Positions 14,781 through 36,505 of a stretch of 51,746 nucleotides of DNA are shown piece after piece. Source of the DNA: Eubacteriales bacterium. Lineage in GTDB: Bacteria; Bacillota; Clostridia; Oscillospirales; CAG-272. Position numbers and translations under genes: made by a program. Where the stretch lies: NCBI GenBank assembly GCA_045594865.1, contig JAZNZI010000134.1:1-51746 (forward strand). Reading direction: 5' to 3'. Below the pieces are notes generated by a model, which made no database searches, was not told where the DNA came from, and saw only the letters and a program-made list of their open reading frames with translations. The first letter of the stretch is position 1, and each line of letters begins with the position of its first letter.

Positions 14781-14811
14781 ATAAAAACCTCTCGTATTTT
14801 TTTCCAGTATA

Positions 14812-14840
14812 ATTATAGCACAAAGCTTTACGTCTGTCAA
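14812..14840 (-). promoter_or_regulatory. Sigma-A type promoter for the CotH lipoprotein gene
   Basis: On the minus strand TTGACA, a 17-nt spacer, then TATAAT. Confidence 0.6.
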
Positions 14841-14875: not shown

Positions 14876-15922
14876 TTATTCTATGCTGAGTTCAAAAGAT
14901 ATTTCTATATCGTAGTCCTTATTTTCATCATCCTTGCCTGCCTCAATAGCGGATACGCCGATGGTGATAACATCGCCCTCTGCTACCTCGATGGTAGCCG
15001 AAAGCTCACCGTTTGTATACTGATCAACGGGAACGTCATTTTCAAGCACTCTACGTAGGTAGATGCTGTTACGGGGATTGTCCGTGGTAAGAGTAAGCAT
15101 ACCGTCAGCTGTAGCTACCCATGTGTAGTAAACCACCGTGTCGCAGTTTACGGTGACGGTGGCGCTGTTCTCGGTCAGCTCAATAGGATTCTCCATAGAG
15201 CCGCTGGGAGCTGTCACCTCAAGGAGCGCGGTAAACTCGGTGTCGGAGGTATTCTTTACCGAGAATACGGAGTTGGCAACGCCCATCTGGTTTTCATCAG
15301 GCTCGATAACGAGGGATGCCACACCGTCCTTTGCCGCATAGCTGTCACCGTTGAAGCCGATAACAGCAGCGGCATTATACACGTTAATGTATCTTACGGT
15401 GGAAACGCGGAGCATAAAGTAAAGCTCCTGGTCGGGAGCGAGAGTGATCTCGGTCTCGTTCTCCGAAATGAAGAAGGGCTTTGCTGCAGAGCCGTCTGGT
15501 TTGTTATCTACGATAGTAAGATCAACTGCACCGGTTCCCTCCTCTACCCTGAAGCCAAAGGTATCGGGAGAGCAATATTCAGGCAGGCTCTCATAATCGT
15601 AGTCAATCTGATAAATACCGCCCTCAAGGTCAATCTTAACCGTTCCGTCCTGTCCGCTTGTAAGCTCAAAACTCTTATCACCTCTGGTAAGAGTGAACTT
15701 AACGCCCGAGAGAGCGTCACCGTTATCAAGCTTTACGCTGATGGTAACAGAAACCGTAGTGATATCGGGTGCCTCGTCACCATCGTCATACTCAGCGCCA
15801 CAGCTGTCGCAAAGATGGTCGTCATCCGCATCCACGTGAGCCTCACACTTCTCCTCGCAGGAGGCAAGAGAAAGCGCCAGCGTCAGTATAAGAAGCAGAG
15901 CCCATAAATATTTTTTATTCAT
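14876..15922 (-). CDS. Lipoprotein (348 aa) with an N-terminal Cys/His/Asp motif and beta-sandwich repeats
   Basis: Signal peptide plus lipobox LALSLASC, then CEAHVDADDDHLCDSCG. The remainder is beta-rich (GGIYQIDYDYESLPEY; AEGDVITIGVSA). AAGGAG RBS. Confidence 0.8.
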   Translation of the reverse strand: MNKKYLWALLLILTLALSLASCEEKCEAHVDADDDHLCDSCGAEYDDGDEAPDITTVSVTISVKLDNGDALSGVKFTLTRGDKSFELTSGQDGTVKIDLEGGIYQIDYDYESLPEYCSPDTFGFRVEEGTGAVDLTIVDNKPDGSAAKPFFISENETEITLAPDQELYFMLRVSTVRYINVYNAAAVIGFNGDSYAAKDGVASLVIEPDENQMGVANSVFSVKNTSDTEFTALLEVTAPSGSMENPIELTENSATVTVNCDTVVYYTWVATADGMLTLTTDNPRNSIYLRRVLENDVPVDQYTNGELSATIEVAEGDVITIGVSAIEAGKDDENKDYDIEISFELSIE

Positions 15923-15952
15923 TTTAGTTCTCCTTAATGTTTATCTTAATAT

Positions 15953-15981
15953 ATTATAGCATTTTCTATTAAGCTTTGCAA
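15953..15981 (-). promoter_or_regulatory. Sigma-A type promoter for the 348-aa lipoprotein gene
   Basis: On the minus strand TTGCAA, a 17-nt spacer, then TATAAT. Confidence 0.55.
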
Positions 15982-16006
15982 TAGCTTTTTAAATATGCCA
16001 TAATAA

Positions 16007-16032
16007 TGCGCCGCGACCATCCGACCGCGGCG
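16007..16032 (-). terminator. Hairpin after the 659-aa lipoprotein gene
   Basis: GCGCCGCG-(10 nt)-CGCGGCGC. The downstream tract on the minus strand is A/T-rich rather than a clean T-run. Confidence 0.45.
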
Positions 16033-16054
16033 CAAGGGTTAAAACAAAATCATA

Positions 16055-18034: not shown

Positions 18035-18094
18035 AACAAGGGTCTCCTTAATAATAATACGTAGATAAAAGAAATAAATATCTATCTATTATAG

Positions 18095-18123
18095 ATTATA
18101 TAATACTTTTATGAACATTTCAA
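18095..18123 (-). promoter_or_regulatory. Sigma-A type promoter for the 659-aa lipoprotein gene
   Basis: On the minus strand TTGAAA, a 17-nt spacer, then TATAAT. Confidence 0.55.
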
Positions 18124-18223
18124 GTCATTTTGGCAATTTTAAGTATTTTTTTATAAGAAAAATAATAAATATGCAAGAATTAACGTTTAAAAATGCAAAA
18201 CAGCAGTCGGTGACCACCCGATA

Positions 18224-18257
18224 TATAAAAGAAAACCGCACCCCGAGGGGTGCGGTT
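18224..18257 (-). terminator. Terminator after the 1098-aa lipoprotein gene
   Basis: On the minus strand AACCGCACCC-CTCG-GGGTGCGGTT followed by TTCTTTTATAT. Confidence 0.8.
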
Positions 18258-18290
18258 GTTTATCAAAGTAGAATTATCTACTATAAATAA

Positions 18291-21200
18291 TTAATTGGTA
18301 ACGCTGAGTCCGCCAATTTCAAGGTTGCAGCACTTATTACCGTTGTGATAGAAGTCGGTCATAATAACCTTTACTGCAACGATACCCTCGCCCTCAAGAG
18401 TAACGGTGTTGTCACCGGCAACAAGGGTGTTGAGAGTGGTAGAAGAAACTACCTCACCATTTGCATTGAGTGCATAGAAGGTAAATGCATCAATCTCTGC
18501 ATTTTCATTCTTTTGATTCTCGTTAAACTTACTGATAGTAAGAGTAACGTCTACAGAAGTCTGAGCTGCAAAGGAAACGGTCTGAATACCCTGATTTACA
18601 TAGTTGAACTTAATTCCGCCGTTGGCGTAGTAGCTGGGATTAGGGTAGTCGGAATTATTAGTAATGTAGCTAAGATCACCGGGAACGGCATTATTGAAGG
18701 TACCGCCAACATAAAGCGCGCCACAGGTGGAGCATACACCATTAGTGTAGGTGTGTGCACAAGAAGCAACAAACTCGCCGTCAACAACCTCTACCTTGAT
18801 GTCACCGATAGCGGGAGCGGTACCTGCGTTGTTCTCGTTGCCCTCAAGATAAGTGAGCTTAAGAGTGAGGGAACCGTCCTCGTTTGCGGTTACGGTGTAG
18901 GAGTAGTAAGCCTTGAAGATGTAGTTCCAATCAGCATCAGTCTGATAATAGAAGATCTGATGCTGCTCGGTCATCCAGTCCTTAGTGATGGAAACGTTGG
19001 AGCCGTTAGCAAACTCGATAGTGGAGTAAACAATCATATCCTGCCACTCTGCCTCGGTAAGTGCGCCTGCCTCGAAGCTGAGAGCCGCGGAAACCTCTGC
19101 GGCAGAAGCTGCGCAGAAGTATACCTGATATGTCATGCCCTTAACTACGGGAATAGTAATCGTAGTAGTCTCAGACTCAACACCGCCGAGAGTAGCGCTG
19201 TAAAGCGTACCATTTGCTACGGTGTAAGTAAGGGTTGCGTAACCGGTAGCGGATGCGGTGAACTGATAGTAGTAGTTATCGTACTCAGCTGCGAGAGAGA
19301 GCGTAATATTTGCGGGAAGAGACTCAATCTTCTCGGGATTATCGTAGGAACCTACGGGAGCGGTGAAGCCAACCTTTACAGTATAGTCACCTGCCTTAGC
19401 AGCAGTGATAGTAACGGTGTAAGTAGTGTAGCCGGGAAGGAGAGCTCCTGCCTCAACAACATTGCCATCTGCATCGGTAACTACAATAGTAAGGCCCTCG
19501 CCGGATACGGTATAGTGACCCTTATCATTGGTCTCAAAGAATACAACTACGCTGTCAGTACCAACGGTAACGGTAGTGTCTTCATAGGTGCTAAGGAAAA
19601 TAGGAGCTACAACCTCTACGGTGTAGTCGCCTGCGGTCTCAGCAGTAACAAGGAGCTTATACTGAACATAGCTCTCAAGAGTGTAAGAGCCGTCCTCGTT
19701 TGCGGTGAGAGCTTCGCCAAGGGAATCATATACAACTACGGTTGCACCAGTAACGTTGAAGAAGTAATCACCGTCGTTTTCTACATAGTATACGCAGTCC
19801 GCGCCGTCAGCATCAACGGTAACGGTATTCTCACCGTCATAGAGATTTGTGGGAGCAACGAAGGAAACGTTGAGAGTGTAGTCACCTGCGGTCTCCGCAC
19901 CAATAATAATGGTGTACTCAGCGCCCCACATGCCGCCCTCAAGATCAACGGTAACAGACTCGAAGCCTCTGGTTACGAGCATGCCGTAGTTGTTGTAAAC
20001 GTTGATGTAGAGGCCCTTACCCTCGAAGGTGTAGGTTGCGGACTGGTAAACATAGAGATAAGCGGTAACGCCGTCAGTGAGATCGATCTCCTGTGCGGTG
20101 AACTTGTTCTCGCCGTTTTCAAGATAAATAACGGTAGGCTCGGGGGGAGCTTCCTCGCTATATGTAATGGAGATAAGCCAATCCTCAGCAGTTACAGCGC
20201 CTACGTAAAACTCGAATACTTCGCCCTCGGCAAGCTCTACAGTGTAGTTAGCACCTGTGGAATTCTCCATAAACTCAACGTCGGGACCACCGTAGGGGTT
20301 CTCATCAATAGAAGCCTTGCTCCAGAGGCCGAGACCTGCGGGAAGACCGAAGGTGTAGTAGCCTGCTACGGGAGCAGTGAAGCTGTCAAGCACAGGAGTC
20401 TCCAACATATCGTTGAAGCCGTAAGAATTGTAGGTTGTAACCTTTATGCTCTCGGGAATTTCAGGAGCCTCGTAGGGAGTCTCAACAACCTTAACGTAGA
20501 ATACGCGAACGGTACGGCTATAGGGGTTCTTGGTGATAGGATCGCCTGTTTCCTCATCATAGGTAGGATTGCCATCTTCGTCAAGAACGGGCTGTCTGTT
20601 GTTCATGGAAACAACTCTGTAAGTACCAGGAAGCAGGTTATAGGTAAGAATGAGACCGTCGCCTGTACCGGTAACGGTATCAAGCTTATCGTTGTTTGCA
20701 ACGAGGTTGCCATCAGCATCAATGATACCGATCCAAGAGGTGTTGGAGCTGCTGGTAGAAGCAACCTTGAGCTCTACAGTAGCAGTGCCCTTAACGGTAA
20801 ACTCAATAGCGCCCTTCTCTTCCTTAGCTACCTCTACACAGTAAATAGCATTATCCTTATAACGATACTTAACCTCGCCAACGATGGTGAAGTAGCCGTT
20901 TACATAGGTGGTGCCTGCAGGAATAACTGTGTTGTCAGCGGGGTTCTCGCCGCCGTCTACAAGACCGAAGTTCCACTCGTAGGTCTTAGGACCGTTGTAG
21001 TTGGGATCTACTGCGCCGCATGCGGAGCATTCGCCCTCTACGTAGTTGTGGTTGGTGACGGGAATTTCTACCTGTGCGGTAAGAATAGTGTCACAAACGG
21101 AGCACTTCTTTCCCTTGGAAAGACCGGTCTCGGTACAAGTGGGAGCCTTGCCCTCAAGCTCTACCTCGGTGTGACCGTTGGGAGCTACTTCCTGAGTCAT

Positions 21201-21587
21201 AGTCTCGCCACATGCGGTACAGGTGAGGGTCTTCTCGCCCTTCTCGGTACAGGTGGGAGCCTTTGTCTCTACGGGAGCGCCATAAGTGTGCTCGGTGCAT
21301 ACGGGAGTGTAGTTAGGATCGGCTGCGCCGCAAACAGAACACTTGCCCTCTGCATAGGTGTGGGGTGCAACGTCGGACTTCTGGGAACCGCATTCCTCGG
21401 TGTCCTGACAGGTTGCTGCGTGCCAGTGGTTGGTCTCGTCGCTGGACCAGTCGGCACTGTAGGTGTGCTCATGGGGCTTGGGATTGATCTTGTCAACGAT
21501 GCCGTTGATAACGTCGCAGGAAGCGAGAGTCATCACGAGAGCAGCAAGAACAACTACAGCCACAAGAAGCTTAAAGTTTCTCTTCAT
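18291..21587 (-). CDS. Large lipoprotein (1098 aa) with N-terminal Cys3-His modules and many beta-sandwich repeats
   Basis: Lipobox VMTLASC and AAGGAGG RBS. Modules include DWSSDETNHWHAATC..., APTCTEKGEKTLTCTACGETMTQEVAPNGH and APTCTETGLSKGKKCSVCDTILTAQVEIPVTNH. Repeated ...AGDYT(V/L)... beta domains follow, and FTAPVAGYYTFGLPAGLGLW...LAEGEVFEFYVGA parallels the 659-aa protein. Confidence 0.85.
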   Translation of the reverse strand: MKRNFKLLVAVVVLAALVMTLASCDVINGIVDKINPKPHEHTYSADWSSDETNHWHAATCQDTEECGSQKSDVAPHTYAEGKCSVCGAADPNYTPVCTEHTYGAPVETKAPTCTEKGEKTLTCTACGETMTQEVAPNGHTEVELEGKAPTCTETGLSKGKKCSVCDTILTAQVEIPVTNHNYVEGECSACGAVDPNYNGPKTYEWNFGLVDGGENPADNTVIPAGTTYVNGYFTIVGEVKYRYKDNAIYCVEVAKEEKGAIEFTVKGTATVELKVASTSSSNTSWIGIIDADGNLVANNDKLDTVTGTGDGLILTYNLLPGTYRVVSMNNRQPVLDEDGNPTYDEETGDPITKNPYSRTVRVFYVKVVETPYEAPEIPESIKVTTYNSYGFNDMLETPVLDSFTAPVAGYYTFGLPAGLGLWSKASIDENPYGGPDVEFMENSTGANYTVELAEGEVFEFYVGAVTAEDWLISITYSEEAPPEPTVIYLENGENKFTAQEIDLTDGVTAYLYVYQSATYTFEGKGLYINVYNNYGMLVTRGFESVTVDLEGGMWGAEYTIIIGAETAGDYTLNVSFVAPTNLYDGENTVTVDADGADCVYYVENDGDYFFNVTGATVVVYDSLGEALTANEDGSYTLESYVQYKLLVTAETAGDYTVEVVAPIFLSTYEDTTVTVGTDSVVVFFETNDKGHYTVSGEGLTIVVTDADGNVVEAGALLPGYTTYTVTITAAKAGDYTVKVGFTAPVGSYDNPEKIESLPANITLSLAAEYDNYYYQFTASATGYATLTYTVANGTLYSATLGGVESETTTITIPVVKGMTYQVYFCAASAAEVSAALSFEAGALTEAEWQDMIVYSTIEFANGSNVSITKDWMTEQHQIFYYQTDADWNYIFKAYYSYTVTANEDGSLTLKLTYLEGNENNAGTAPAIGDIKVEVVDGEFVASCAHTYTNGVCSTCGALYVGGTFNNAVPGDLSYITNNSDYPNPSYYANGGIKFNYVNQGIQTVSFAAQTSVDVTLTISKFNENQKNENAEIDAFTFYALNANGEVVSSTTLNTLVAGDNTVTLEGEGIVAVKVIMTDFYHNGNKCCNLEIGGLSVTN

Positions 21588-21702
21588 AATAGAGATCCTC
21601 CTTTGAATTTTTATTTCATTTATGAAATATCTTGATTTTTTGCCGTCGTGCGACCTAACGGCAGGGGAGGTATTCTTTTTTTAAAAATAAATACCTAATT
21701 AT

Positions 21703-21731
21703 ATTATAGAACAGCTTGGTAGATTTTTCAA
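21703..21731 (-). promoter_or_regulatory. Sigma-A type promoter for the 1098-aa lipoprotein gene
   Basis: On the minus strand TTGAAA, a 17-nt spacer, then TATAAT. Confidence 0.55.
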
Positions 21732-21934
21732 GGGGTTTTGGAATATTTTTTAAAGATTATTTCAACTTTTTTCCACTTTTGTAGCGTTTTTTTAGATGTT
21801 CCTGCATATTTATTCCTTATATTCAGCATATTTATTCGCAAATTCCCTCTCGGGTGTCAAAATAGTTAAGAAAAACTGAATGCGTGGGCAAGAGAAAAAA
21901 GAAAGAGTAAAAGAAATAATAAAAATCGCCGACC

Positions 21935-21972
21935 GAAAACCAAAAGAAAACCACGCCTCCGAAGAGGCGCGG
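21935..21972 (-). terminator. Terminator after the 2053-aa gene
   Basis: On the minus strand CCGCGCCTC-TTCG-GAGGCGTGG followed by TTTTCTTTTGGTTTT. One pair is G-U on the minus strand but A-C on the plus strand. Confidence 0.8.
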
Positions 21973-22005
21973 TAGACTAAGTATATTTAGTTGATTAACT
22001 TGATA

Positions 22006-25000
22006 TTACTTATAAAGCTGAATTGCAGTTTGAGTTGAGGTATAACAAGCGAATCTAGGGCTAGATGCATTCCACTGAAGCTTACGAGTTGAGTCATTTG
22101 CATTGGTTATGATAGCATCGCCATTAGAAAATGAAACATTCCAAGAAGAATTTGCATTCAATGTAGTGGATGTTGCCAAAGAATTGCTAGACGACCAAGA
22201 CATATATTCCCCTTTGGAATTCTTGAAAGCGAATGTTCCAGAAGTAGATCCTGCAACTACGGTCCATGCATATGTACCATTAATTGAACCACTGTATGCT
22301 TCGCCATAGGCATAACTTGTTCCGTTAAAGGAAGACATCTCATAGCCCTTGCTTTCGCAAACAAAGTAAACTACATCACCAACAGCAATTGTAGTAGCCT
22401 TTGTGGGAGCAGCAGATGTATTATGTCCTTCACAAACAGTCTCGCAAATTGTGCATTCTGCATTGGTGCATTCACCACATGTTGTGCACTTTTCGCTTTC
22501 ACAAACAGGAGTCTCATCTCCAGAACCAGAATCGACAACAACAGTCTTTACGTAGATTGAAATTGCCGTTTGAGAAGCGCTTGAATAGCATGCAAATATG
22601 TCACTAGAAGAATTGTACTGCATTACATTACGTGTACTTGTTCCCTGGGCAACTATTGAAGCCACGCCATTGGAATCTACAGTTATTTTCCAGCTAGCAT
22701 TTGCATTTTTTGTACCAGATTTTAATTGGTTACCAGAAGAAGACGCTGCATAAAGATATTTATCACCAACATTAAATGCATATGTTCCAGTTACAGTTCC
22801 AGCCTCGAGAGTAATGATCTGAACATTATCAACAATTATTACAGTATTACCATCCTTAGTGATTGCCACATGACCTCTATTGTTAGAGTTCTGAGTGGTG
22901 CTCATTGCGTATTTTTCTTCACTCGAAACGATAATAATCTGCTTATCAGCTGCAAGCTGATTAACGTTAGTTACAAGCTGCCATACCTCTTTTGTTGCAC
23001 CTCCAATAGGAGTTCCGCATCCTTCAACATCACAAACGTTGTCTCCGTTATTGTCTACGTGATCTGCCTTCTCACCGGGTTTTCCGCAGATGGAGCAAAT
23101 AGAAGCCACAAGACAGGTTGCCTCGGACCACTGGTGATTTTCGCCGTGCTGGGTATGGCTCTCAAGAATAGCATTTGCCATTTGAGATGTTCCGTTATAA
23201 TTACCGATCTTACCATAGATAGTTATGGTATCACCAGCAACAGGCTTTGTAGTCATAGCATCATAACGAGTTTCATCTTCAAGGTAGAGACCGTAAATCT
23301 GGAACTGAGATTCATTGTCAACGAAGCTATTTACAAGGTACATATTACCATAAGTAGTATTATATAAGTCGTAAACCACGCCGGTTACCTTATAGCTATT
23401 AGTAGATGTTTTACCACCGCCCAAAGCGTTGCCAAGAGCAATAGCCTGCTCAATGGTAAGAGTATCGGTTGTGGGCTCTACTACAGCGCTACAAGTATCA
23501 CACTTATAGTCAGTTTCATATCCGGAGTGACCGGTAGCAGAAACTTTGCTATCTTTATAAGTATCACCACAAGCGGAGCAAGTGTGAGTTGTGAAACCAC
23601 CATTTGTACAAGTCGGTTCAGTTACGACAGACTCGTAAGAATGAGCAGGATCTGTTTCATTTCCTTTGCGCAGTTCCTCGCCGCAATCTGCACAATAGTA
23701 TGTTGTATATCCGCCAGTCGTACAAGTGGGTGCAGTTACTTCTGCTCTTTCTTCCTCATGGAAGCAAGCATCCGGGTCTGTTTCGCCACAGTTAGCGCAA
23801 ATATGAGTTGTCTCGTCATAGTCGTGTCCTGTAGCTGCAACTGTATTACCTGTATAGGTATCACCACAGCCACAAGTGTAGGTTGTGTAACCTGCTTCCT
23901 CACATGTAGGATCAGTTACTTCAGTTTCATAAGAGTGACCGAGAGCAGAATCTGCAACCTCGTCTCCGCACTTGCTACAAGTACCGTTCTCGGTGCAAGT
24001 TGCGCCAGTAACATTGTCCTCACAGCTGTGAGCAGGAACGATAACCTCAACTTCCTTCTCAACTTCAACAGTTGCAACCAATGTAATGGAGTTAAGCATT
24101 ACTCTCCAACCACCAGTAACAGTTGTAAAGGATATTGTTTTTTCAGTAGATGTGTCAATCTCAAATACGGTATAATCTGTTCCGTTATGAACTATACCAT
24201 CACTATCACTAAACATTCCAGCAAGAGTAACGGTTTTTTCAACACCTCCAATAGTATATGTAAGTTTACCATTATTTTTCTTATATCCACCAGCAGAAAT
24301 GATAACCTTAGTTACATTGTTAGGAACAGTAATTTCAAACGCTCCGGCTTTTGAACCTGTACCCAATTTAATGCAAGAATTACCGAGTCCGTCATTAGCT
24401 TTCGGATACATGTTGGCTCCGTTTGTCAAATTCAAAGTAATTCCATTAACGGTTTCGGAATATTCAGTAGAAGCATTGGAACCATCAGAATGCGCTCCTG
24501 CATTCTTATTTGCGCCAAATTCAAATACAAATTTCTTCTCGCTAGTTGCGGTTTCGGTCTTGATTACCTTCTTAGCGCCACATTCACACCTGTTATCTAC
24601 CCAAACGTGATTATCGGGATTAAGATCAAGGAGAACCTTTGTTGAATAATCACACTTTGTACAATACTCATAAGCATTCCAACCCTGAGTTGTACATGTA
24701 GATGCCTGAGCTGCTGCATTTGCAGTGGAGTGAGATGCAGGAATTGCAAAGCTGGTAGTATCAGCCTTACCGTTGGTTGCATCAGTTGTAGCATTTTCAG
24801 CAAAATAAAGCTCACATTCGGTACACTGCTTGTATTCAGAATTACCAGCCTCGGTACAGGTAGCATCGTTAGCTGCTACGGTTTCACCGAAGGTGTGACC
24901 GGTTGCAGGAACAACAAAGCTATCAGTGTTTTTCTCACCGTTGGTTGCAGTATTTTCTGCAACTGCAGCGAAGTAAAGCTCGCATTCGGTACACTGCTTA

Positions 25001-28000
25001 TATGCGGAATTACCATTCGCGGTACAAGTAGCATCGTTAGCAGTTACGATAGCACCAAAGGTGTGACCGGTTGCAGAAATAGTCTCGGTCTTGGTCTGAG
25101 TTTCGAAGCCTTCCTTATCAAAGGTTGCGGTATAGGTCTTCACACCTGCAGTTGTACAGGTTGCGGAAGTGGTGGTTTCACCATCGTCTACGGTAGCGTT
25201 TACGCTATCGTGATGCTGGCAATCATTATACTGACAGGTTCTGGTTGCGGTGCAAGCAGTATAGTCTGTCCAGGAATATGTGATATCACCGTAGTTATGA
25301 GCGCGGAGAGCGCCACTCTTGAAGGTGTCGTTGTCGCTTGTGCTTACCTTGCCGCAATGCTCGCAGGACCGGTAGTAAACAGCCTGCTTTGTACAGGTAG
25401 CAGCGGACTTGAGCGCGCCTTCTGCCTCGGTATTTTCAACCTTGTAGGAGTGAGTAAGAGCGTTGATTTCCTGAGTATGTGTCTTTGTATCACACCAGTC
25501 CTGAGTAAAGGTTGCAGTATAAACGGTCTTACCTGCTTTTTCACACTCGGGATCGGTGGTCACGCTTGTAACAGTTGCTGTAGCTGTCTGAGTTCCACAA
25601 TTTGCACAAGTTCTGCTTGCGGTGCAGGAGGAATAATCCTCTGCCCAAACATAAGTGGTATCGCCGTAGCCGTGAACAAGCTTGTCAAGAGTTTCGGTCT
25701 TGGTCTGAACGGTAGCCCAAGCCTTATCGAAGGTTGCGGTATAGGTCTTAGTACCTTTCGCGGTGCAGGTAGAAGGAGTGGTAACTACACCTGTTGCGGT
25801 AGCGGTTGCAGTCTCGGTGTGACCACAGCCATTAGTTACACAAGCTCTGGTAGCGGTGCAAGTCTCGTAACCGTTCCACTCATAAGAGGTCGCGCCGTAG
25901 GTGTGTCCTGTAGAGTTCTGCCAATCTCTCTGCTCAGTGTTATCACATCCCGAGCACTTATAAAGAGTATATCCCTTTGCCTCACAGGTGGGAGCAACGG
26001 TCTCAACCAATACGGTATACTTGTGTCCCTCGGTCTTAATAGCATCTTCCTTAGTCTGAGTTGCAAAGCCTTCCTTAGTAAAGGTAGCGGTGTAGGTCTT
26101 AAGACCGTCCTCGGTACATGTGGGAGCTTTTGTTGTTATTACAACGTCAACAGTCTCGGTGTTAACGTGCGCGGGGTTAGTCTTACATACGATGCTTGCG
26201 GTACACTTAGAATTGTTTGCATTCCAGGTGTAGGTAACTTTCTGTCCATCGTAGTCGTGACCGTTAGGCTCACCGTCGGTAGCGCCACAGCCTGCTCTCT
26301 GGCAGGTCTTGGGAGAGAGACAGGTAGCATCTGCCCAATCGTGACCAAGCGCAGCTTCTGTCTGCTGAGGAACGTATATTTCACCACAGTCAAGGCACTT
26401 CTTACCCTCGGTCTGACCTGCAGTAGTACATGTAGGAGCTACTGCAGCAAGAGTCTCGGTATTGGTATGACGGCAAGCAGCGTCACGGATGTTTTCGCAA
26501 ACGTTACACTCTGCGTCGTAAATATCATCATAAGTATGGGGAGCAAGAGCAGTCTCGGTCTGCTCGATCTCAACCTTACCACATACGTCACAGTGCTTAC
26601 CCTCGGTGAGACCGGGCTCCTTGCAGGTAGCATCCACTGCAGGATCGGTTACATAGTGGTGGTTGGTAGTTACGGGAAGATCCTTGGTTTTTGTGTTAGA
26701 AGCGAAGTTCTCAAATTTAGCAGTATAAACGATCTTACCTGGATCCTTACAGGTAGCGGGAGTAGTTACGCTGGTAATATCAGCAGACTCGCTCTTGCTT
26801 GCAGAGCAATTAACTCTTGTACACTTCTGCTGTGCGGTACAAGAGGAGTAATCGATGCTCCAGGAATAAGTGGTTTCACCGTAAGCGTGATCAAGCTTAT
26901 TAGTGGTAGTGCTCTTTGTCTGCTTAGCAAAGCCTTCCTTAGTAAAGGTAGCGGTATAAGTAACCGATCCGCCTGCGGTGCAGGTTGCAGATGCGGTCTG
27001 GATAGTCGCATTAGCGGTTTCGGTCACAACGTGACTAGGATCGTTCTTACAAACCTTGGTTGCGGTACAGGTCTTGTAATCATCGCTCCAAACGTAAGTA
27101 GCATCGGCATAGTCGTGGCCAAGCTTGCTGCCCTCAGTTGCCTTACATACAGAACAGGTCTTAGGAGCTTCGCAGGTAGCGTTGTTCCACTTGTGACCAA
27201 TCGCCTCGCCCTGAGTTGCGGTACATACGGAGCAGATCTGGGGCGAGGTACAGGTAGCGTCCTTCCAATCGTGGCCAAGCGCCTCGCCCTCGGTCGCGCC
27301 GCAGTTCACTCTCTGACAGGTCTTGGGATCTGTACAGGTTGCGGGCTTCCAGTTGTGGCCGAGCGCATCACCCTCGGTTAACTCACATACGGAGCAGGTC
27401 TTGGGGGCGATACAGGTTGCAAGAGTCCAGGAGTGAGCGATCATAGGAACGATCTCCTGACTTGTGAGGATCTCCTCACAGTCCTTGCACTTCAGTCCCT
27501 CGGTAAGACCTGTTTTGGTACAGGTTGCAGCCTCAGCCGCAAGAACCTCGGTATTGGTGTGACGGCAAGCTGCATCGCGAACGAAGTCACAGCCCTCGTT
27601 GTTACAGGTTGCGTCGTATTCATCATCGTACTTATGTCCTGTTGCAGGAACGGTGCTCTGCGCCTCGAGTACGCTGTCGCACTCCGAGCACTTCTTACCC
27701 GCGGTAAGTCCCGTCTCGGTACAGGTGGGTGCCTTGGCAGCGAGAGCTTCCTCCTTATGTCCTGCCGCAGGGATGGTCTCCTGCTTTACGGTGATCTCAC
27801 CGCACGCGGAGCACTTCTTTCCCTCGGAAAGTCCTGCCTCGGTACAGGTGGGTGCCTTGGCAGCGAGAGCTTCCTCCTTATGTCCTGCCGCAGGGATGGT
27901 CTCCTGCGCCAGAGTTATCTCGCCACAGATGGAGCACTTCTTACCCTCTGTGAGACCCGTAGCGGTACAGGTTGCGTTCTTTCCTTCCAAGACTTTCTCT

Positions 28001-28167
28001 GCGTGTCCTAAGGCTTCACCCTCAGTCTTTCCACAGGTCAAGCAGGTTTTCGGAGTAGTACAGGTAGCGTCCGTCCACTCGTGCTTATGGAAAATATTAC
28101 ACGAGGTAAATGACATTACCATTACGAAAAGCACTGCCACTAAAAGAATAATGCTTCTGGTTTTCAT
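22006..28167 (-). CDS. Giant lipoprotein (2053 aa) built from more than 30 Cys3-His modules plus OB-like and beta-sandwich domains
   Basis: Lipobox VMSFTSC and AAGGAGA RBS. The module array covers aa ~25-1150. A beta-sandwich domain follows (FVFEFGANKNAG...). More Cys modules and then an OB-fold-like segment follow (YKVTGVVYDLYNTTYGNMYLV...GDTITIYGKIGNYNGTSQM). Two related ~140-aa C-terminal domains end in ...FACY(S/T)S...I(S/Q)(I/L)Y(V/K). Confidence 0.85.
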   Translation of the reverse strand: MKTRSIILLVAVLFVMVMSFTSCNIFHKHEWTDATCTTPKTCLTCGKTEGEALGHAEKVLEGKNATCTATGLTEGKKCSICGEITLAQETIPAAGHKEEALAAKAPTCTEAGLSEGKKCSACGEITVKQETIPAAGHKEEALAAKAPTCTETGLTAGKKCSECDSVLEAQSTVPATGHKYDDEYDATCNNEGCDFVRDAACRHTNTEVLAAEAATCTKTGLTEGLKCKDCEEILTSQEIVPMIAHSWTLATCIAPKTCSVCELTEGDALGHNWKPATCTDPKTCQRVNCGATEGEALGHDWKDATCTSPQICSVCTATQGEAIGHKWNNATCEAPKTCSVCKATEGSKLGHDYADATYVWSDDYKTCTATKVCKNDPSHVVTETANATIQTASATCTAGGSVTYTATFTKEGFAKQTKSTTTNKLDHAYGETTYSWSIDYSSCTAQQKCTRVNCSASKSESADITSVTTPATCKDPGKIVYTAKFENFASNTKTKDLPVTTNHHYVTDPAVDATCKEPGLTEGKHCDVCGKVEIEQTETALAPHTYDDIYDAECNVCENIRDAACRHTNTETLAAVAPTCTTAGQTEGKKCLDCGEIYVPQQTEAALGHDWADATCLSPKTCQRAGCGATDGEPNGHDYDGQKVTYTWNANNSKCTASIVCKTNPAHVNTETVDVVITTKAPTCTEDGLKTYTATFTKEGFATQTKEDAIKTEGHKYTVLVETVAPTCEAKGYTLYKCSGCDNTEQRDWQNSTGHTYGATSYEWNGYETCTATRACVTNGCGHTETATATATGVVTTPSTCTAKGTKTYTATFDKAWATVQTKTETLDKLVHGYGDTTYVWAEDYSSCTASRTCANCGTQTATATVTSVTTDPECEKAGKTVYTATFTQDWCDTKTHTQEINALTHSYKVENTEAEGALKSAATCTKQAVYYRSCEHCGKVSTSDNDTFKSGALRAHNYGDITYSWTDYTACTATRTCQYNDCQHHDSVNATVDDGETTTSATCTTAGVKTYTATFDKEGFETQTKTETISATGHTFGAIVTANDATCTANGNSAYKQCTECELYFAAVAENTATNGEKNTDSFVVPATGHTFGETVAANDATCTEAGNSEYKQCTECELYFAENATTDATNGKADTTSFAIPASHSTANAAAQASTCTTQGWNAYEYCTKCDYSTKVLLDLNPDNHVWVDNRCECGAKKVIKTETATSEKKFVFEFGANKNAGAHSDGSNASTEYSETVNGITLNLTNGANMYPKANDGLGNSCIKLGTGSKAGAFEITVPNNVTKVIISAGGYKKNNGKLTYTIGGVEKTVTLAGMFSDSDGIVHNGTDYTVFEIDTSTEKTISFTTVTGGWRVMLNSITLVATVEVEKEVEVIVPAHSCEDNVTGATCTENGTCSKCGDEVADSALGHSYETEVTDPTCEEAGYTTYTCGCGDTYTGNTVAATGHDYDETTHICANCGETDPDACFHEEERAEVTAPTCTTGGYTTYYCADCGEELRKGNETDPAHSYESVVTEPTCTNGGFTTHTCSACGDTYKDSKVSATGHSGYETDYKCDTCSAVVEPTTDTLTIEQAIALGNALGGGKTSTNSYKVTGVVYDLYNTTYGNMYLVNSFVDNESQFQIYGLYLEDETRYDAMTTKPVAGDTITIYGKIGNYNGTSQMANAILESHTQHGENHQWSEATCLVASICSICGKPGEKADHVDNNGDNVCDVEGCGTPIGGATKEVWQLVTNVNQLAADKQIIIVSSEEKYAMSTTQNSNNRGHVAITKDGNTVIIVDNVQIITLEAGTVTGTYAFNVGDKYLYAASSSGNQLKSGTKNANASWKITVDSNGVASIVAQGTSTRNVMQYNSSSDIFACYSSASQTAISIYVKTVVVDSGSGDETPVCESEKCTTCGECTNAECTICETVCEGHNTSAAPTKATTIAVGDVVYFVCESKGYEMSSFNGTSYAYGEAYSGSINGTYAWTVVAGSTSGTFAFKNSKGEYMSWSSSNSLATSTTLNANSSWNVSFSNGDAIITNANDSTRKLQWNASSPRFACYTSTQTAIQLYK
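27715..27907 (-). repeat. Intragenic 123-nt tandem duplication with a 70-nt perfectly identical core
   Basis: nt 27715-27784 are identical to nt 27838-27907. The offset of 123 nt equals 41 codons and encodes the duplicated ...QETIPAAGHKEEALAAKAPTCTE... module. Confidence 0.85.
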
Positions 28168-28268
28168 TTTTCTCTCCTTGTTTTCATTTTAAAATAAAGT
28201 TATAAGAAAAATACATTGTTTTTTTAACAAAGCGCCGAAGGCTTTTTAAAGCCGACATTGTTTGTTTT

Positions 28269-28321
28269 GGTATGATGTTAACGAAGTAAAACATCATACC
28301 AAAAGGGGGTACCCCCTTTTT
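28269..28321 (-). promoter_or_regulatory. Two adjacent strong hairpins in the predicted 5' leader of the 2053-aa gene
   Basis: The palindrome AAAAGGGGGTACCCCCTTTT (28301-28320) is directly followed on the minus strand by GGTATGATGTT-(10 nt)-AACATCATACC (28269-28300). Both lie between the predicted promoter and the RBS. Confidence 0.4.
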
Positions 28322-28346
28322 ATAAAATAGTTTAGCAATTAATTTC

Positions 28347-28375
28347 ATTATACCACTCTTACAAACAAAATTCAA
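28347..28375 (-). promoter_or_regulatory. Sigma-A type promoter (extended -10) for the 2053-aa gene
   Basis: On the minus strand TTGAAT, a 17-nt spacer ending in TGG, then TATAAT. Confidence 0.5.
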
Positions 28376-28515
28376 GGTTATTCTACAAAAGGCTTTATGA
28401 CCGATATGTAGAATTTAACTTGGATTTTTTATGCACTTTTAACAACGACTATGGCATTTTGCAACAAGATACGGCATTTTAAAAACCATTTTTATACAAT
28501 ATGTAGTGTTTTGCT

Positions 28516-28555
28516 CAGAAAAAGCAAAAGAGACGGCGCGGACGCCGTCTCTTTG
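28516..28555 (-). terminator. Terminator of the MoxR/vWA operon
   Basis: On the minus strand AAAGAGACGGCG-TCCG-CGCCGTCTCTTT followed by TGCTTTTTCT, 10 nt after the stop of the 517-aa gene. Confidence 0.8.
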
Positions 28556-28564
28556 CGTTATAGG

Positions 28565-30118
28565 TTATTCATAGTATCCGCAGGCGAAGAGCCACTGGGA
28601 ATCCTCGTATGCGTCGACAGAGATCGTGGGATTGGTCTCTGCCCAGCCCTCTCCGTCGGCAAAGTAGCCACGGGCGATGGAGAAGTGCTGAAGGAACTCC
28701 TTAAGCTCGGGGGTGACGGGCGCAACGCCGTCGGAGTTGACGAGGTCGGCATAGCCCTTTACCGCCATTTCGGCAGCGGTGACGTTGGTGCAATCGACAT
28801 CGCATTCGGGACAGCCCTCAAGGCAGGCGAGCGTGCCGCCGTCAAAGTGACAGGGACAATCGGACACACAATAATATCCACCGGATGCCATAGCTGAAAA
28901 GCCCTTGATGAATAGGCGATAATTCTTAGTACCGCTGTCAACCACGAGAGCGCTGTTTCCCGCATCCTCAATAGTGGTAAAGGATCGATCGATAAACCTG
29001 CACGCCTCGGTTATATAGGCAACGAGCACGGGACCGTAGCCATTCGTTTCGGGATATTTCTCGGGGTCATAGACGTGATAAACGCCGTCGCCGCCCTCGG
29101 AAGTCTTCCATACCTTATAATTATCCTCGTCAAAGACGAGAGTATCGGTTGTATTAGGATAAAGTGTTTCGGCTCCTACGATATTGCCGCCTGCGAGAGA
29201 ATTAAACTTGTCAAAATCGAAGGCAGACCAATCGTGAGATGGGAGCATAGTCTCCCGCTCCGTCCTGCTTATATCGAAGCCACCGTTGCGCTTGATGGCA
29301 AAGGTAAGATTGACGGGATAAACGCTGCTCTTAGTCTCCGCGCCCACCGCAAAGGTAAAGGTCTGGGAGCCGCCCGAGCTGATATTTTCATCAGCAATAT
29401 TTACACTGTGGATAAAGTTTCTTGTATAGCTACCGCAGATGCCAACGTCGGTCACCCTATACTCTCCGTACTTATACTGAGAGGAGCCGAGATAGCCGAT
29501 ACAAATGGGGCTGACCTCATCCTCAGTTGCGCTTACCCAGCTCTCAACGGTGTAAATACCGTTAGTCTGCGGGGCAAACTCAATGTAGCTGTAATCGCTC
29601 TCGGCGGTGATGGTGACGGTGTAAACACCCGTGGTATTGATATGATAGCACTCGTAAAGTCCTGCTCCCGCGCCGCGAAGGGGGTTAAGGTCGTAGAGGT
29701 CGATTATGATATTACGGTTCTCATTAGTAGCAACATACGCGTTTGGATCGTAAGCATAGCCTGCGGGAACGCTGGAGAGTGTGACGTTATAATCACCGTC
29801 AAGTCCGTCTATCACTGCATAGCCACTATCGTCAATAGGCGCGATGTGCACGTTGTATCCGTCGCTCCAATACACGTTCATACTGACCGTGGGACTAAAG
29901 GGCTGCTCGTTCAGGCGAAGCTGTACCGAGAAGTCATTAGTAGGATCGTTGTCCATATCCGGCTGTGTAGCAGAGCCGTCAGGGTATTTATTTCCCTGTC
30001 CGCCTCCGTTATTGCCGCCCGGAGTTCCCGTTGCGGGACGGTACTCGCCGCAGGAGACTACCGAAAGAAGCGCAGAGCACACCAATATCAATGCGATAAT
30101 TCTCTTAAAAATGCTCAT
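28565..30118 (-). CDS. Lipoprotein (517 aa), last gene of the MoxR/vWA operon
   Basis: Lipobox ALLSVVSC followed by a G/N-rich linker. It has a beta-sandwich-like segment (GYAVIDGLDGDYNVTLSSVPAGYAY) and a Cys-rich C-terminal region (CVSDCPCHFDGGTLACLEGCPECDVDC). The start overlaps the upstream stop (ATGA). Confidence 0.8.
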   Translation of the reverse strand: MSIFKRIIALILVCSALLSVVSCGEYRPATGTPGGNNGGGQGNKYPDGSATQPDMDNDPTNDFSVQLRLNEQPFSPTVSMNVYWSDGYNVHIAPIDDSGYAVIDGLDGDYNVTLSSVPAGYAYDPNAYVATNENRNIIIDLYDLNPLRGAGAGLYECYHINTTGVYTVTITAESDYSYIEFAPQTNGIYTVESWVSATEDEVSPICIGYLGSSQYKYGEYRVTDVGICGSYTRNFIHSVNIADENISSGGSQTFTFAVGAETKSSVYPVNLTFAIKRNGGFDISRTERETMLPSHDWSAFDFDKFNSLAGGNIVGAETLYPNTTDTLVFDEDNYKVWKTSEGGDGVYHVYDPEKYPETNGYGPVLVAYITEACRFIDRSFTTIEDAGNSALVVDSGTKNYRLFIKGFSAMASGGYYCVSDCPCHFDGGTLACLEGCPECDVDCTNVTAAEMAVKGYADLVNSDGVAPVTPELKEFLQHFSIARGYFADGEGWAETNPTISVDAYEDSQWLFACGYYE

Positions 30119-32793
30119 TTTGCCGCTCCTTTCTTGGTTTTAACGAAAAGTCCCTTTATATCCTTAAGCTTGAATTTTCTCACCACTACGTCAACGATAA
30201 ACAGCACCGCCGCGAGAATAAGCAGAGGAATTGCAAAGCTTACCTCATAGGTAGCGACCTCGCTCTTGTCATTTTCAAGATCAAGGCTTCCGTCCTCGGA
30301 AATCTGTCCCACACCGCGCATAAAGTCATAGATGCTGACTATGTCGTAGGCGGTAAAGGAGTCGTACTCCTCGCTGTACGCGATAGTGAAGTAGGTATCT
30401 GAGGTAAAGGAATGATTGCCGTAGGTATAGGTTATCTCAATGTGATATTTACCGATATCGGAGGTTTCCACGGTGGCGTAATACCTGTTGAGGTCGAAGA
30501 TCATATTCTCCTCAATAACCGTTCCGTCGGGAGCGGTAAGCTTTAGACTCGCCTTCGCCTTAGGATTTACCGACGAGGGAATGATCTCAATACCCGAGGC
30601 ATCACCCATATAATTAAGATTGAGAGTAAAGGGATAATTTACGTGCTCGGTAGGTGTGTTGGTGACGAGAATATTGTTAAACAGCTGCTCCTTCACACTA
30701 TTGCTCCAGCCGCGAAGCCAGGTTCCCGAAATGCTGGAGGTAAAGGTGGCAACTCTGCCGTTTCCGTGGTCGCGATAGGAATAAAGCGGCACGGCAACCG
30801 GCGTGGTCGGATTCTTGTAGTAATCAACCGAAAGCACCATTTTAGCATCAAGCTTAGGCTTACTGTTTACATAGCCGTAAACGTCGGGCAAGGATAGAAG
30901 TCCCTCCACGGTACCGTCGCGATACATCTCTATATTGACCGCAGTCTGCTTCTCAACCACAGAGTCGGTCAGATCGTCTGCGATCTCGGCAAAGATAAGC
31001 TCGGTAAGCTTGCTCTCGTCAAGGAAATCATAGTACATACCGCCGCCGATGTCGGCAAGATTTTCAAGGAACAGACAGCCCGAGGTATGATCGTTTGGAG
31101 CTGCGGGACTGTGGTTAAGCACGCTGATGGTGGAGAGAGTTATATCGTCGTTTCTCATCTTCTCCGCCACGGCTGCCGCATCCTCAGGCTCGTTGGTAAA
31201 GGTCTTACCGTCGCTGATAAGCATTATCTGCTTCTCACCGTAGTCAAGATCCTTCATATGACTGTACGCCATATCAAGAGCCGCACCGATAAAGGTACCC
31301 TGGGTAGGCTGAACGTTCTGGATCATACGATAAAGCTCTTCCCTGCACTCGCCAAGCTTGGTGGGTGTAAGCTCTATTTTCGCCTCGCCCGCAAGGGTGA
31401 CGAAGGCAACACTGTCATCATCCTCAAGGATAGATACGAGCTTCATCGCAGCCTCCTTTGCCACAAGCAGCTGGGCAGGTCGCGCATAATACATACTGCG
31501 CGATATATCAATTATAATGGTATAAAGCTTCGCGTCCTTATTTGCATTGCCGAAGTTGACGGGCAGAAGCTCCTCAAGGCGCGCGAAAACCTCGTCGTCC
31601 CTGTTCTGCATAGACAGGTCGCCCATAGTGATAAGGCTCTTTCCGTACTGAGAAACGGCAAGGTCCACCGAGTCGATAAAGGCGTAGATATTGTCGATCT
31701 TACGGATATCCACGTTGGACAGTATAATCTCATCGTACTTTACCAGATCCTCAATGGTATAAGGCACTCTGCCGTTATGATCTGTGACAACATAGGAGTC
31801 GATAACAGCCGCCTCTCCAAACAGATCCTCGATAGCATTGACGTCAGCCCGCTTCTCGGTGACGAGCAGAACGCTTCTCTGCCCCGTCACGCTTTGGGTG
31901 AAGAGGTATGAGTTGTTGTGAGGAGAGGTATCGGCGGTTGCAGACAGCTCTACCTTATAGTCGAACACACCGGACTCGTCGGTGGGCAGATCAAAGGTAG
32001 CGATATTCATACCCACGTCCGCCTTGAGAGTGGTGGTGTCGATATTTACGTACTCGCTCTCACCGTCGCGCTTGGCATAAAGATCAATGATAACGTCGTT
32101 CTTTACGCTCGACTCGATAAGCATTTTAAGTGTGCTGTCGTGATTAAGATACGTAGCCGAGGTGTACTCCACGTCGGAGATCTGTATCTCGCTATCTCCC
32201 TCTCGGAGATTGTTGTTAAGATAGATTGCATCAAGCTTTATACCTTTGGCAACGAGGCGCTGTACCGCAGAGGCGGTGCTGCCGTCGGAGGTGGTGGCAA
32301 AGCCGTCGGTGATTAGAATTATTCTCTTGATCTCTCCCTCGCCAAAGAGGGTGGCGGTAAAGTCCAGCGCGCCTGCGATATTCGTGCCGCTGTCGTCTAC
32401 GGTCGCCTCCTTAACGCTCTTTATCTCGGTGCCCGAGGAGGTGAGAATCTCTGCATCCTTACCAAAGCATACGATACCGAGCCTCGAGTTAGATGGCAAC
32501 GCCTTCTCTATATCGCGGATGTACTCGTCTATCTCGTCGAGATTTCGGTTTGAGGAATAGGATACGTCGGCAACGACGTACACCTTCGTTCTCGTCATTA
32601 CGGTGGTGTGGGTAAGTCCCGCCGCCGCAAGAGAAATCGAAATAATAATTACTATGTGAATAATAAGAGATGCAACCCATCCCTTAGTGCGATTGTCCTT
32701 GCTTACGGAGATAAAGTAAGGAACAAGCAGTGCTATTGCCAGCGGAATGGCAATCAGAAGCCAATACGGATTATCGAAGCTGATATTTCTCAT
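30115..32793 (-). CDS. Membrane protein with two vWA domains (BatA/BatB-like)
   Basis: BatA-type N-terminal TM pair (FDNPYWLLIAIPLAIALLVPYF...). Two MIDAS DxSxS motifs (VVADVSYS, IIIDISRS). C-terminal TM anchor (FAIPLLILAAVLFIVDVVV). Confidence 0.8.
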   Translation of the reverse strand: MRNISFDNPYWLLIAIPLAIALLVPYFISVSKDNRTKGWVASLIIHIVIIISISLAAAGLTHTTVMTRTKVYVVADVSYSSNRNLDEIDEYIRDIEKALPSNSRLGIVCFGKDAEILTSSGTEIKSVKEATVDDSGTNIAGALDFTATLFGEGEIKRIILITDGFATTSDGSTASAVQRLVAKGIKLDAIYLNNNLREGDSEIQISDVEYTSATYLNHDSTLKMLIESSVKNDVIIDLYAKRDGESEYVNIDTTTLKADVGMNIATFDLPTDESGVFDYKVELSATADTSPHNNSYLFTQSVTGQRSVLLVTEKRADVNAIEDLFGEAAVIDSYVVTDHNGRVPYTIEDLVKYDEIILSNVDIRKIDNIYAFIDSVDLAVSQYGKSLITMGDLSMQNRDDEVFARLEELLPVNFGNANKDAKLYTIIIDISRSMYYARPAQLLVAKEAAMKLVSILEDDDSVAFVTLAGEAKIELTPTKLGECREELYRMIQNVQPTQGTFIGAALDMAYSHMKDLDYGEKQIMLISDGKTFTNEPEDAAAVAEKMRNDDITLSTISVLNHSPAAPNDHTSGCLFLENLADIGGGMYYDFLDESKLTELIFAEIADDLTDSVVEKQTAVNIEMYRDGTVEGLLSLPDVYGYVNSKPKLDAKMVLSVDYYKNPTTPVAVPLYSYRDHGNGRVATFTSSISGTWLRGWSNSVKEQLFNNILVTNTPTEHVNYPFTLNLNYMGDASGIEIIPSSVNPKAKASLKLTAPDGTVIEENMIFDLNRYYATVETSDIGKYHIEITYTYGNHSFTSDTYFTIAYSEEYDSFTAYDIVSIYDFMRGVGQISEDGSLDLENDKSEVATYEVSFAIPLLILAAVLFIVDVVVRKFKLKDIKGLFVKTKKGAAK

Positions 32794-35499: not shown

Positions 35500-35502
35500 T
35501 TA

Positions 35503-36504: not shown

Positions 36505-36505
36505 T

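Follow-up and report, generated by a model that had tools for sequence, protein, structure and literature searches.

Two papers from 2025 describe the ZBD domains of the M64 immunoglobulin A (IgA) protease of Thomasclavelia ramosa (IgAse, or ThomasA) as a putative new zinc-linked 'periscope' stalk fold, on the basis of models and small-angle X-ray scattering (SAXS) (PMC12237041, PMC12415215). In that protein, ZBD1 and ZBD2 (CTD2 and CTD4) consist of tiny three-stranded beta-sheets strung together, with His/Cys sets where they join; both papers report no fold match for these domains, which are proposed to form an extended stalk that projects the functional domain from the Gram-positive surface. 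The His/Cys sites were modelled as tetrahedral, and according to the authors no disulfides are present in the experimental structures or models despite 24 Cys residues (PMC12237041); by SAXS, CTD2 is an extended rod (PMC12415215). Zinc binding by IgAse is a prediction, and metal analysis of the ZBDs and a treatment of the wider family are absent from both papers (PMC12237041, PMC12415215), while a third paper (PMC12402451) contains no characterisation of the ZBDs. Here, a gene at positions 22006..28167 (minus strand) of contig JAZNZI010000134.1 from an Eubacteriales bacterium (lineage CAG-272) is described, of which the whole 51,746-nucleotide stretch is referred to as the window. The gene encodes a protein of 2053 amino acids (aa) built largely from small Cys- and His-containing modules that, by profile search, fall in the same superfamily as ZBD1 and ZBD2 (PDB construct 9qa6).

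The two proteins differ in several respects. IgAse has only five such subdomains, mostly His2Cys2 with one Cys3His site, whereas the window protein has 31 modules and three caps, almost all of the Cys3His type. IgAse has a C-terminal sortase-motif anchor and a protease as cargo; in contrast, the window protein would be anchored by an N-terminal lipid and ends in a head of beta-trefoil and OB-like domains. Module flavours A, C and D and the caps are not described for IgAse, and zinc is predicted in both. The overall plan of an anchor (here a putative one), a long repetitive rod and a distal domain is also that of periscope proteins and fibrillar adhesins such as SasG, Aap and the Rib-domain proteins (PMC9704523, PMC9210967), in which, as here, repeat number varies between strains and DNA repeats are in frame with module length. 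However, periscope stalks are assembled from Ig-like, G5-E or Rib units rather than from a putatively metal-stapled module of 26-76 aa, and canonical examples have long arrays of near-identical DNA repeats, whereas those in the window have 75-84% identity and at most 2.3 copies. The polarity is also reversed, with an N-terminal lipid anchor (putative) and a C-terminal head. The window protein is probably a lipid-anchored fibrillar surface protein of gut Clostridia with a Zn-stapled stalk and a head of a sugar-binding type; zinc, rigidity, lipid anchoring and an adhesin or lectin function are what we infer from the evidence below.

Zinc ribbons and C1 domains (Zn_ribbon_3, DZR, C1_1) provide a further comparison. 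These share with the modules a C-x2-C-G knuckle on a beta-hairpin, a small beta-sheet and, for C1, a Cys3His ligand set. In contrast, zinc ribbons have two knuckles (CxxC ... CxxC), whereas each module here has a single CxxC, one further Cys and a His some distance away, at the preceding junction, and the modules are extracellular and in tandem. Pfam scores are below the gathering thresholds for C1_1 (21.1 versus 26.5 bits, over 19/53 positions) and Zn_ribbon_3 (18.6 versus 27), and also for DZR and Zn_Ribbon_1. Membership of the classical zinc ribbons was therefore rejected, given these sub-cutoff scores and the single CxxC per module.

The module map resolves the protein, with its 117 Cys (5.7%) and 52 His residues, into 31 full modules (8 A, 14 B, 6 C and 3 D), three caps and one 7-Cys linker, with the modules distributed over three arrays:

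24568..28083, minus strand: stalk array 1, residues 29-1200, 26 modules (A1 B1-3 D1 B4 A2-5 C1-2 B5 D2 B6 A6 C3 B7 C4-5 B8 C6 B9-11, with a His + 2 Cys cap)
23482..24030, minus strand: stalk array 2, residues 1380-1562 (A7 B12 D3 B13 B14, with a cap)
23008..23136, minus strand: stalk array 3, residues 1678-1720 (A8, with a cap)

A first-pass annotation made from the sequence alone had placed the giant open reading frame (ORF) at exactly 22006..28167 and had counted more than 30 modules, which the map bears out. Its consensus patterns for flavours A, B and C are accurate, and its four non-repeat domains lie where the map puts them. It overlooked the fourth flavour and the caps, and it envisaged a single array followed by C-terminal domains, where the map has three arrays (residues 29-1200, 1380-1562 and 1678-1720) split by globular domains. 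Modules of type A are ~26-31 aa long, type B 37-56 aa, type C 74-78 aa and type D 22-25 aa. Type D follows the pattern Y-D-x3-D-x2-C-x2/4-C-x7-C-x-H and occurs at residues 179-203, 545-567 and 1449-1470. The caps, which have a His and two Cys, lie at residues 1188-1200, 1548-1562 and 1704-1720, one closing each array. When the whole protein is cut after each His, mostly 3-Cys segments result. Within residues 29-1200 there are 19 such segments, versus 3.0±1.6 (maximum 9) in 2000 shuffled sequences, and CxxC motifs number 17, versus 5.7±2.2 in the shuffles. The periodicity of Cys and His is far beyond chance and is not an effect of composition.

In the first-pass annotation, each module was taken to end in His. 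This register was tested at the boundaries of arrays in 240 fetched relatives, and it proved to be off by one His. In array-first A modules, defined by 70 upstream residues without Cys, a His at the x5-8 spacing is kept in 32/32 cases (for instance, ...AHEHNWEEATC...). Conversely, B modules with nothing downstream end in ...IPALGF, from which the 'terminal' His is gone. Arrays end as an H-x6-8-C-x1-4-C-G cap in 304/408 instances. A His within 20 residues past the last Cys occurs at background frequency (19% versus 19%), while one within 20 residues ahead of the first Cys is present in 46%, its spacing peaking at x6 and x10-12. Each array of the window protein is similarly preceded by a His (H29, H1380 and H1678) and closed by a cap, and His1380 leads array 2 although no module is directly upstream. 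From these boundary statistics, the His is assigned to the Cys residues that follow it, as the first ligand of the next module. In this register, the units read H-x6-C-x5-C-x2/4-C (A), H-x10-12-C-x9-10-C-x2-C (B) and H-x8-9-C-x2/4-C-x7-C (D). The leading His comes immediately after the preceding module, and the four ligands are therefore expected to converge where two modules join; a His lying at the N-terminal border of the module that supplies the Cys residues fits such a junction site.

Pfam and NCBIfam scans of the whole protein and of single modules returned nothing at or above curated cutoffs, and thus no existing repeat family in these databases covers the modules. Some homologs are labelled EGF_LMN_ATRN, Auto_anti-p27, zf-Vps39_C or DUF4907; these labels were discarded, being sums of partial CxxC matches with zero significant stretches. 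Among PDB sequences, a profile of the 11 B modules of the window protein matches only 9qa6_A, at residues 856-882 (E=1.2e-5), and a profile of His2Cys2 modules taken from homologs (E-type, see below) matches residues 939-977 and 1103-1140 of the same chain (E=6.8e-23). Phmmer searches of PDB sequences with the whole protein and with residues 957-1200 gave no relevant match, such that the link to IgAse comes from profiles only and the relationship must be distant. Nevertheless, by these profiles the stalk modules are assigned as homologs of ZBD1/ZBD2 of the T. ramosa protease. The earlier statement that the modules are not a described family thus holds insofar as no Pfam or NCBIfam model exists, and fails insofar as related modules of one protein, IgAse, are the subject of the two 2025 papers. 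Literature keyword searches did not find a broader description of the family, and a paper on zinc ribbons and extracellular SH3-like domains (PMC5906684) was set aside as unrelated. The module family has therefore already been noticed for the five-module IgAse, the wider family has no database model, experimental structure or metal measurement, and no description seems to exist of flavours A, C and D or of the cap.

The wider family is large. At E<=1e-3, the B-module profile matches 40,135 representative proteins, each standing for a 50%-identity cluster; tightening the cutoff to E<=1e-10 leaves 21,448, and to E<=1e-30 leaves 6,750. There are up to 71 matched modules per protein, and protein lengths reach 7,583 aa. 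A word-indexed homolog search gave at least 7,643 matches among 8,000 candidates, and its top matches are giant proteins of uncultured Clostridia with SLH, dockerin, cohesin, Flg_new, Big_2, LRR or glycosidase-associated domains. In a set of 119 relatives, the commonest flavour by far is B (~1,600 matches), followed by D+B (~500), A (~100) and C (~15-50). The E-type, with the pattern H-x-W-x-x-W-I-x-D-x-x-A-T-x4-G-x-K-H-x-E-C-x2-C, is absent from the window protein; it is interspersed with A and B modules in relatives (P0005-P0035 and others) and dominates the ZBDs of the IgA protease. These modules, spliced between cohesins, dockerins, SLH and glycosidase-associated domains and into an IgA protease, may represent one main way in which gut and rumen Clostridia build long surface stalks. 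This IgA protease is being explored as a possible treatment for IgA nephropathy. The window offers a clean and richly populated example, from which the register, flavours, cap and ligand-swap rules suffice to define the family.

Three lines of evidence bear on whether the conserved residues bind metal or form disulfides. The number of Cys residues per module is three, and thus odd. In type C modules, the third ligand is a Cys in 26-28 homologous modules and a His in 22, with spacings of x2 or x4 (Cys) and x5 (His), and the sole type C module without the fourth Cys has a His at that position. Similarly, B-like modules without the first Cys have a His three residues before the CxxC in 38/147 cases, versus 122/4955 canonical modules (odds ratio 13.8, p=1e-25, 30 proteins); the loss of the first Cys together with the gain of a His yields the His2Cys2 variant that is here named E-type. 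Because such interchange and compensation fit metal ligands and are impossible for disulfide partners, metal sites are favoured over disulfides. A Cys3-His site, for which the first-pass annotation had argued, thus seems to explain the data better, in agreement with the tetrahedral His/Cys sites modelled in IgAse. Additionally, the Pfam similarities of isolated modules, all sub-threshold, are almost all to zinc-binding motifs (C1_1 N-terminus, Zn_ribbon_3, DZR and rubredoxin-like). A co-loss analysis of 3352 B modules in an hmmsearch alignment was uninformative, since a match scores only if the Cys are present, and the flanking His is lost at the trimmed ends of local alignments.

Structure prediction with AlphaFold2 (AF2) was performed on residues 504-715 (B5-D2-B6-A6-C3; window positions 26023-26658), with a 39-row alignment of which the register was checked. 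The model has a mean predicted local distance difference test score (pLDDT) of 90.5 and strands of only 3-7 residues, with the D module least confident (pLDDT 77-79). The low predicted template modelling score (0.52) is as expected for a non-compact chain. The model shows the modules lined up in a row as very small antiparallel beta-sheets that share no globular core. Together with the published SAXS data on the homologous CTD2 of IgAse, an extended rod (PMC12415215), this agrees with the bead-on-a-string stalk that had been suggested earlier. A Foldseek search of PDB with the five-module model gave no match at E<=1e-3; such a result would be expected for an elongated chain of tiny domains, and is hence a weak pointer to a new fold.

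Anchoring of the stalk is suggested by the N-terminus of the protein:

28099..28167, minus strand: putative signal peptide and lipobox, residues 1-23, MKTRSIILLVAVLFVMVMSFTSC, read directly from the sequence

A basic n-region and a hydrophobic core are followed by F-T-S-C, such that the sequence reads MKTRSIILLVAVLFVMVMSF-T-S-C. Given this MKTR-hydrophobic-FTSC arrangement, lipid anchoring at Cys23 is inferred. Four neighbouring ORFs have LASC or VVSC at the same position as FTSC in the giant protein; LASC, present in neighbouring paralogous ORFs, is the canonical form.

Following the stalk and interspersed with arrays 2 and 3 are four globular domains and a linker:

24031..24567, minus strand: dom1, residues 1201-1379, globular domain between arrays 1 and 2
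23137..23481, minus strand: dom2, residues 1563-1677, probable OB-fold, from sub-threshold family matches
22513..23007, minus strand: dom3, residues 1721-1885, predicted beta-trefoil (AF2 pLDDT ~95 and Foldseek)
22423..22512, minus strand: Cys-rich linker, residues 1886-1915, with 7 Cys and 1 His, from the module map
22009..22422, minus strand: dom4, residues 1916-2053, second predicted beta-trefoil and paralog of dom3 (phmmer cross-matches, AF2 pLDDT ~88 and Foldseek)

Two related C-terminal domains of ~140 aa had been noted earlier; dom3 and dom4 (~140-165 aa) are indeed paralogous by phmmer cross-matches and, by Foldseek, are beta-trefoils. An AF2 model of residues 1721-2053, built with 40 co-linear homologs, has its best PDB match in HA33/HA1 of Clostridium botulinum (E=5e-11, Foldseek probability 1.0), followed by fascin and by ricin-B-type toxin lectin domains. 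The PDB matches at E<=1e-3 number 112, of which the best 50 are almost all trefoil-containing. By this model, dom3-dom4 is a tandem beta-trefoil pair. The match to the HA33/HA1 haemagglutinin, a double beta-trefoil lectin (5b2h, 3ah4), extends in tandem over both domains; however, the identity to dom3-dom4 is 10-13%, there is no sequence-level match, and the pair in the window protein is joined by the 30-aa Cys-rich linker. This linker has the pattern C-x4-C-x2-C-x2-C-x4-C-x2-C-x3-C-x2-H, a pLDDT <50 in the AF2 model and, in family scans, only sub-threshold matches to 4Fe-4S motifs; similar CxxCGxCT... linkers are present in homologs P0036, P0122 and P0229.

Dom1, for which the first-pass annotation had suggested a beta-sandwich (residues 1201-1380), has no Pfam match and no PDB sequence match, and is carried by about 58 fetched relatives with shuffled domain order, including downstream of Endonuclease_1. 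For dom2, sub-threshold matches to PF01336 are found in 8/15 and to PF13742 in 6/15 aligned members, and relatives P0125 and P0203 have OB-fold family matches at or near the curated cutoff. An OB-fold is therefore probable; the OB-fold-like segment of the first-pass annotation (residues 1563-1671) is to this extent retained, on weak, sub-threshold sequence support from these two families. The four head domains behave as a shuffled toolkit, recurring in at least 684 other proteins; some copies follow a type IV pilin N-methylation motif, and others occur in proteins of Bacteroidaceae together with CHB_HEX_C/Fn3_assoc or BACON. As a separate observation, dom1, the OB-like dom2 and the trefoil recur downstream of a secreted Endonuclease_1 in relatives P0176, P0183, P0198 and P0223, and P0138 has such a domain set behind the pilin motif. 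Recurrence beside Endonuclease_1 and pilin may indicate that these domains help to bind nucleic acid or another polymer outside the cell. Overall, the head is most likely a composite binding module for glycans, and possibly for nucleic acid.

Taken together, the following sequence of events is proposed. The protein would be exported, lipid-anchored at Cys23 and folded outside the cell into a chain of mini-sheets. Past the lipobox Cys, a stalk of 26 small all-beta modules would extend, and eight more would be set among the globular domains of the distal part (five full modules with a cap, then one full module with its cap). Each module would hold one tetrahedral structural metal ion, presumably Zn2+, through the His at its start, the Cys of the (A/P)-T-C turn and the C-x2-C knuckle, and the site, lying at the junction of two modules, would staple neighbours together into a stiff rod. 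If the dimensions of the published IgAse ZBD1 model (~110 Å for three subdomains; PMC12237041) are scaled up, then the proximal 1,170-residue array would measure ~100 nm. Such a stalk could pass the Gram-positive wall and present the trefoil/OB head, in which dom1 and the probable OB-fold would be joined by a tandem beta-trefoil pair like that of the sugar-binding HA33. Strains alter stalk length by gain or loss of whole modules and exchange heads by recombination. If zinc stapling is confirmed, then it would constitute a principle of extracellular rod construction distinct from the Ig-like, Rib and G5-E stalks, and one that ties surface display to metal availability.

Several points weigh against parts of this interpretation. 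The array-last B modules that lack the His, on which the leading-His register partly depends, come from only four closely related proteins. Type C modules have five conserved candidate ligands, with the lead His in 48/48 and the fourth Cys in 47/48. Caps show three obvious ligands; in ~70% of caps, the residue at -3 relative to the first Cys is Asp or Asn and may provide the fourth. In general, the proposed ligand set derives from sequence statistics. With no significant Foldseek match, the predicted module fold is without an experimental anchor, and a beta-trefoil fold as modelled for dom3 and dom4 is no proof of sugar binding. Lastly, relative to the lipobox consensus [LVI][ASTVI][GAS]-C, positions -2 and -1 of the putative anchor match, while the Phe at -3 is atypical.

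If the modules were instead disulfide-knotted Cys-rich repeats, EGF-like or similar, then the His residues would be incidental. The protein is indeed extracytoplasmic and Cys-rich, and some homologs have summed weak matches to EGF_LMN_ATRN; these, however, include zero individually significant stretches. An odd number of three Cys per module, a conserved His that tracks the following module, the interchange of Cys and His at fixed positions and the gain of His upon loss of Cys are all difficult to reconcile with disulfides, which are also reported to be lacking in IgAse despite its 24 Cys (PMC12237041) and would be formed here in an anaerobic gut Clostridia lineage. Disulfide knots are thus very improbable, and membership of EGF-like or other disulfide-rich repeat families was rejected on the Cys number, the interchange and the lack of a significant EGF stretch. 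Another class of metal site is considered even more improbable, namely that the modules bind iron (rubredoxin-like) or Fe-S clusters and that the stalk is an extracellular redox wire. Weak matches of the CxxC knuckles (RUBY_RBDX, E=0.015) and of the 7-Cys linker (Fer4 families, E=0.17-1.2) point in this direction, as does the anaerobic host, but all iron-type matches are far below curated cutoffs, and Cys3His and His2Cys2 are ligand sets typically seen with structural Zn. Furthermore, with one site per 26-76 residues, the centres would be nanometres apart, too far for electron hopping, as judged from the dimensions of the IgAse model (PMC12237041).

A different possibility is that the modules, rather than acting as a passive spacer, carry out the function of the protein themselves, either as zinc fingers that bind ligands such as nucleic acid or glycans, or as a surface store or scavenger of zinc. 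The ~34 putative sites per protein would amount to a large metal load, Cys/His fingers classically bind nucleic acids, and in relatives the cargo domains are found together with Endonuclease_1 and OB-folds. However, the modules are spliced among very different cargos (cohesin, dockerin, SLH, LRR, glycosidase-associated domains and the M64 protease), which is the behaviour of a generic spacer. Surface residues other than the ligands and the turn glycines are poorly conserved, and the proposed Cys3His sites are fully coordinated and look structural rather than exchangeable. This alternative is therefore regarded as unlikely, and a zinc-stapled structural stalk is preferred. An extension of the stapled stalk, held as rather doubtful, is that it acts as a metal-gated mechanical element, with stiffness and reach set by the zinc occupancy of the ~34 junction sites. 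If so, then zinc limitation in the gut (for example, by host calprotectin) or thiolate oxidation would collapse or retract the adhesin head, and, with >40,000 related proteins, zinc availability would govern surface display across gut Clostridia in general. For one protein, IgAse, zinc regulation was raised by the PNAS authors, only as speculation.

Comparison with close homologs indicates where the protein varies. The proximal stalk (B2-C6) is 80-100% identical among these homologs, and in P0002, P0003 and P0004 the stalk is 85-100% identical and lacks B9 and B11. In contrast, identity falls to 27-57% across the stretch from dom1 to dom2, and the trefoil head is kept in P0002 (88-93%) and replaced in P0003, P0004, P0038 and P0096. 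At the DNA level, three tandem repeats (1.8-2.3 copies, 75-84% matches) are in frame with whole modules:

27686-27972: tandem repeat of 123 bp, equal to one B module
27130-27291: tandem repeat of 78 bp, equal to one A module
24769-25076: tandem repeat of 168 bp, equal to one long-B module

The 168-bp array corresponds to the B9-B10 pair, the copy number of which differs between strains. P0002, the closest homolog, has an identical gene order in which flanking proteins are 96-100% identical and the giant protein is 78.8% identical. These sequence comparisons fit a stalk of variable length with exchangeable heads under diversifying pressure.

Five genes for putative lipoproteins, the giant gene among them, form a run at 14876-30118 (minus strand). 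Signals flanking the gene were identified as follows:

28347..28375, minus strand: promoter-like site upstream of the giant gene, TTGAAT-17-TATAAT with TG, from a consensus scan (pattern match only)
21950..21973, minus strand: terminator-like hairpin with a 10-bp stem and T-run, 33 nt past the stop codon (pattern match only)

The promoter-like site lies just downstream of a terminator-like hairpin (12-bp stem, 28527-28554) that follows the upstream gene. With hairpins at both sides and a promoter-like site, the giant gene appears to be its own transcription unit. Immediately upstream of the run is an operon of a MoxR AAA+ ATPase, DUF58, BatA/VWA and VWA genes (30115-36549, minus strand), the order of which is kept in the sister strain (L029). 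Downstream are genes for a CotH kinase-like protein (12669-14840, minus strand) and an M13 peptidase (10431-12329, minus strand).

Adjacent to the giant gene is a second module-bearing gene for a putative lipoprotein of 1098 aa (18291-21587, minus strand), with B modules at residues 100 and 139 and caps at 76, 180 and 945. It has 42.5% identity to its counterpart in the sister strain, while the flanks have 96-100%, and this location is therefore a second hypervariable surface-protein hotspot. Long antisense ORFs are present within both module-bearing genes (24730-27381, plus strand, 883 aa; and 18345-21635, plus strand, 1096 aa). These are most likely shadow ORFs of a skewed codon usage rich in Thr, Ala and Gly, and not genes. 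Two more putative lipoproteins of the run (16055-18034 and 14876-15922, both minus strand), which have an LASC lipobox, show a cap-like His/Cys motif directly past the anchor Cys (LASCQPTCEH...; LASCEEKCEAHVDADDDHLCDSCG). The motif may have a further role close to the membrane. Elsewhere in the window, a 462-aa ORF (42288-43676, minus strand) has 21 Cys and contains zinc-ribbon-like CxxC pairs (…HECGAKKPEANGWRCSCGATATGKFCPEC…); it lacks an obvious signal peptide and probably has no relationship to the surface modules.

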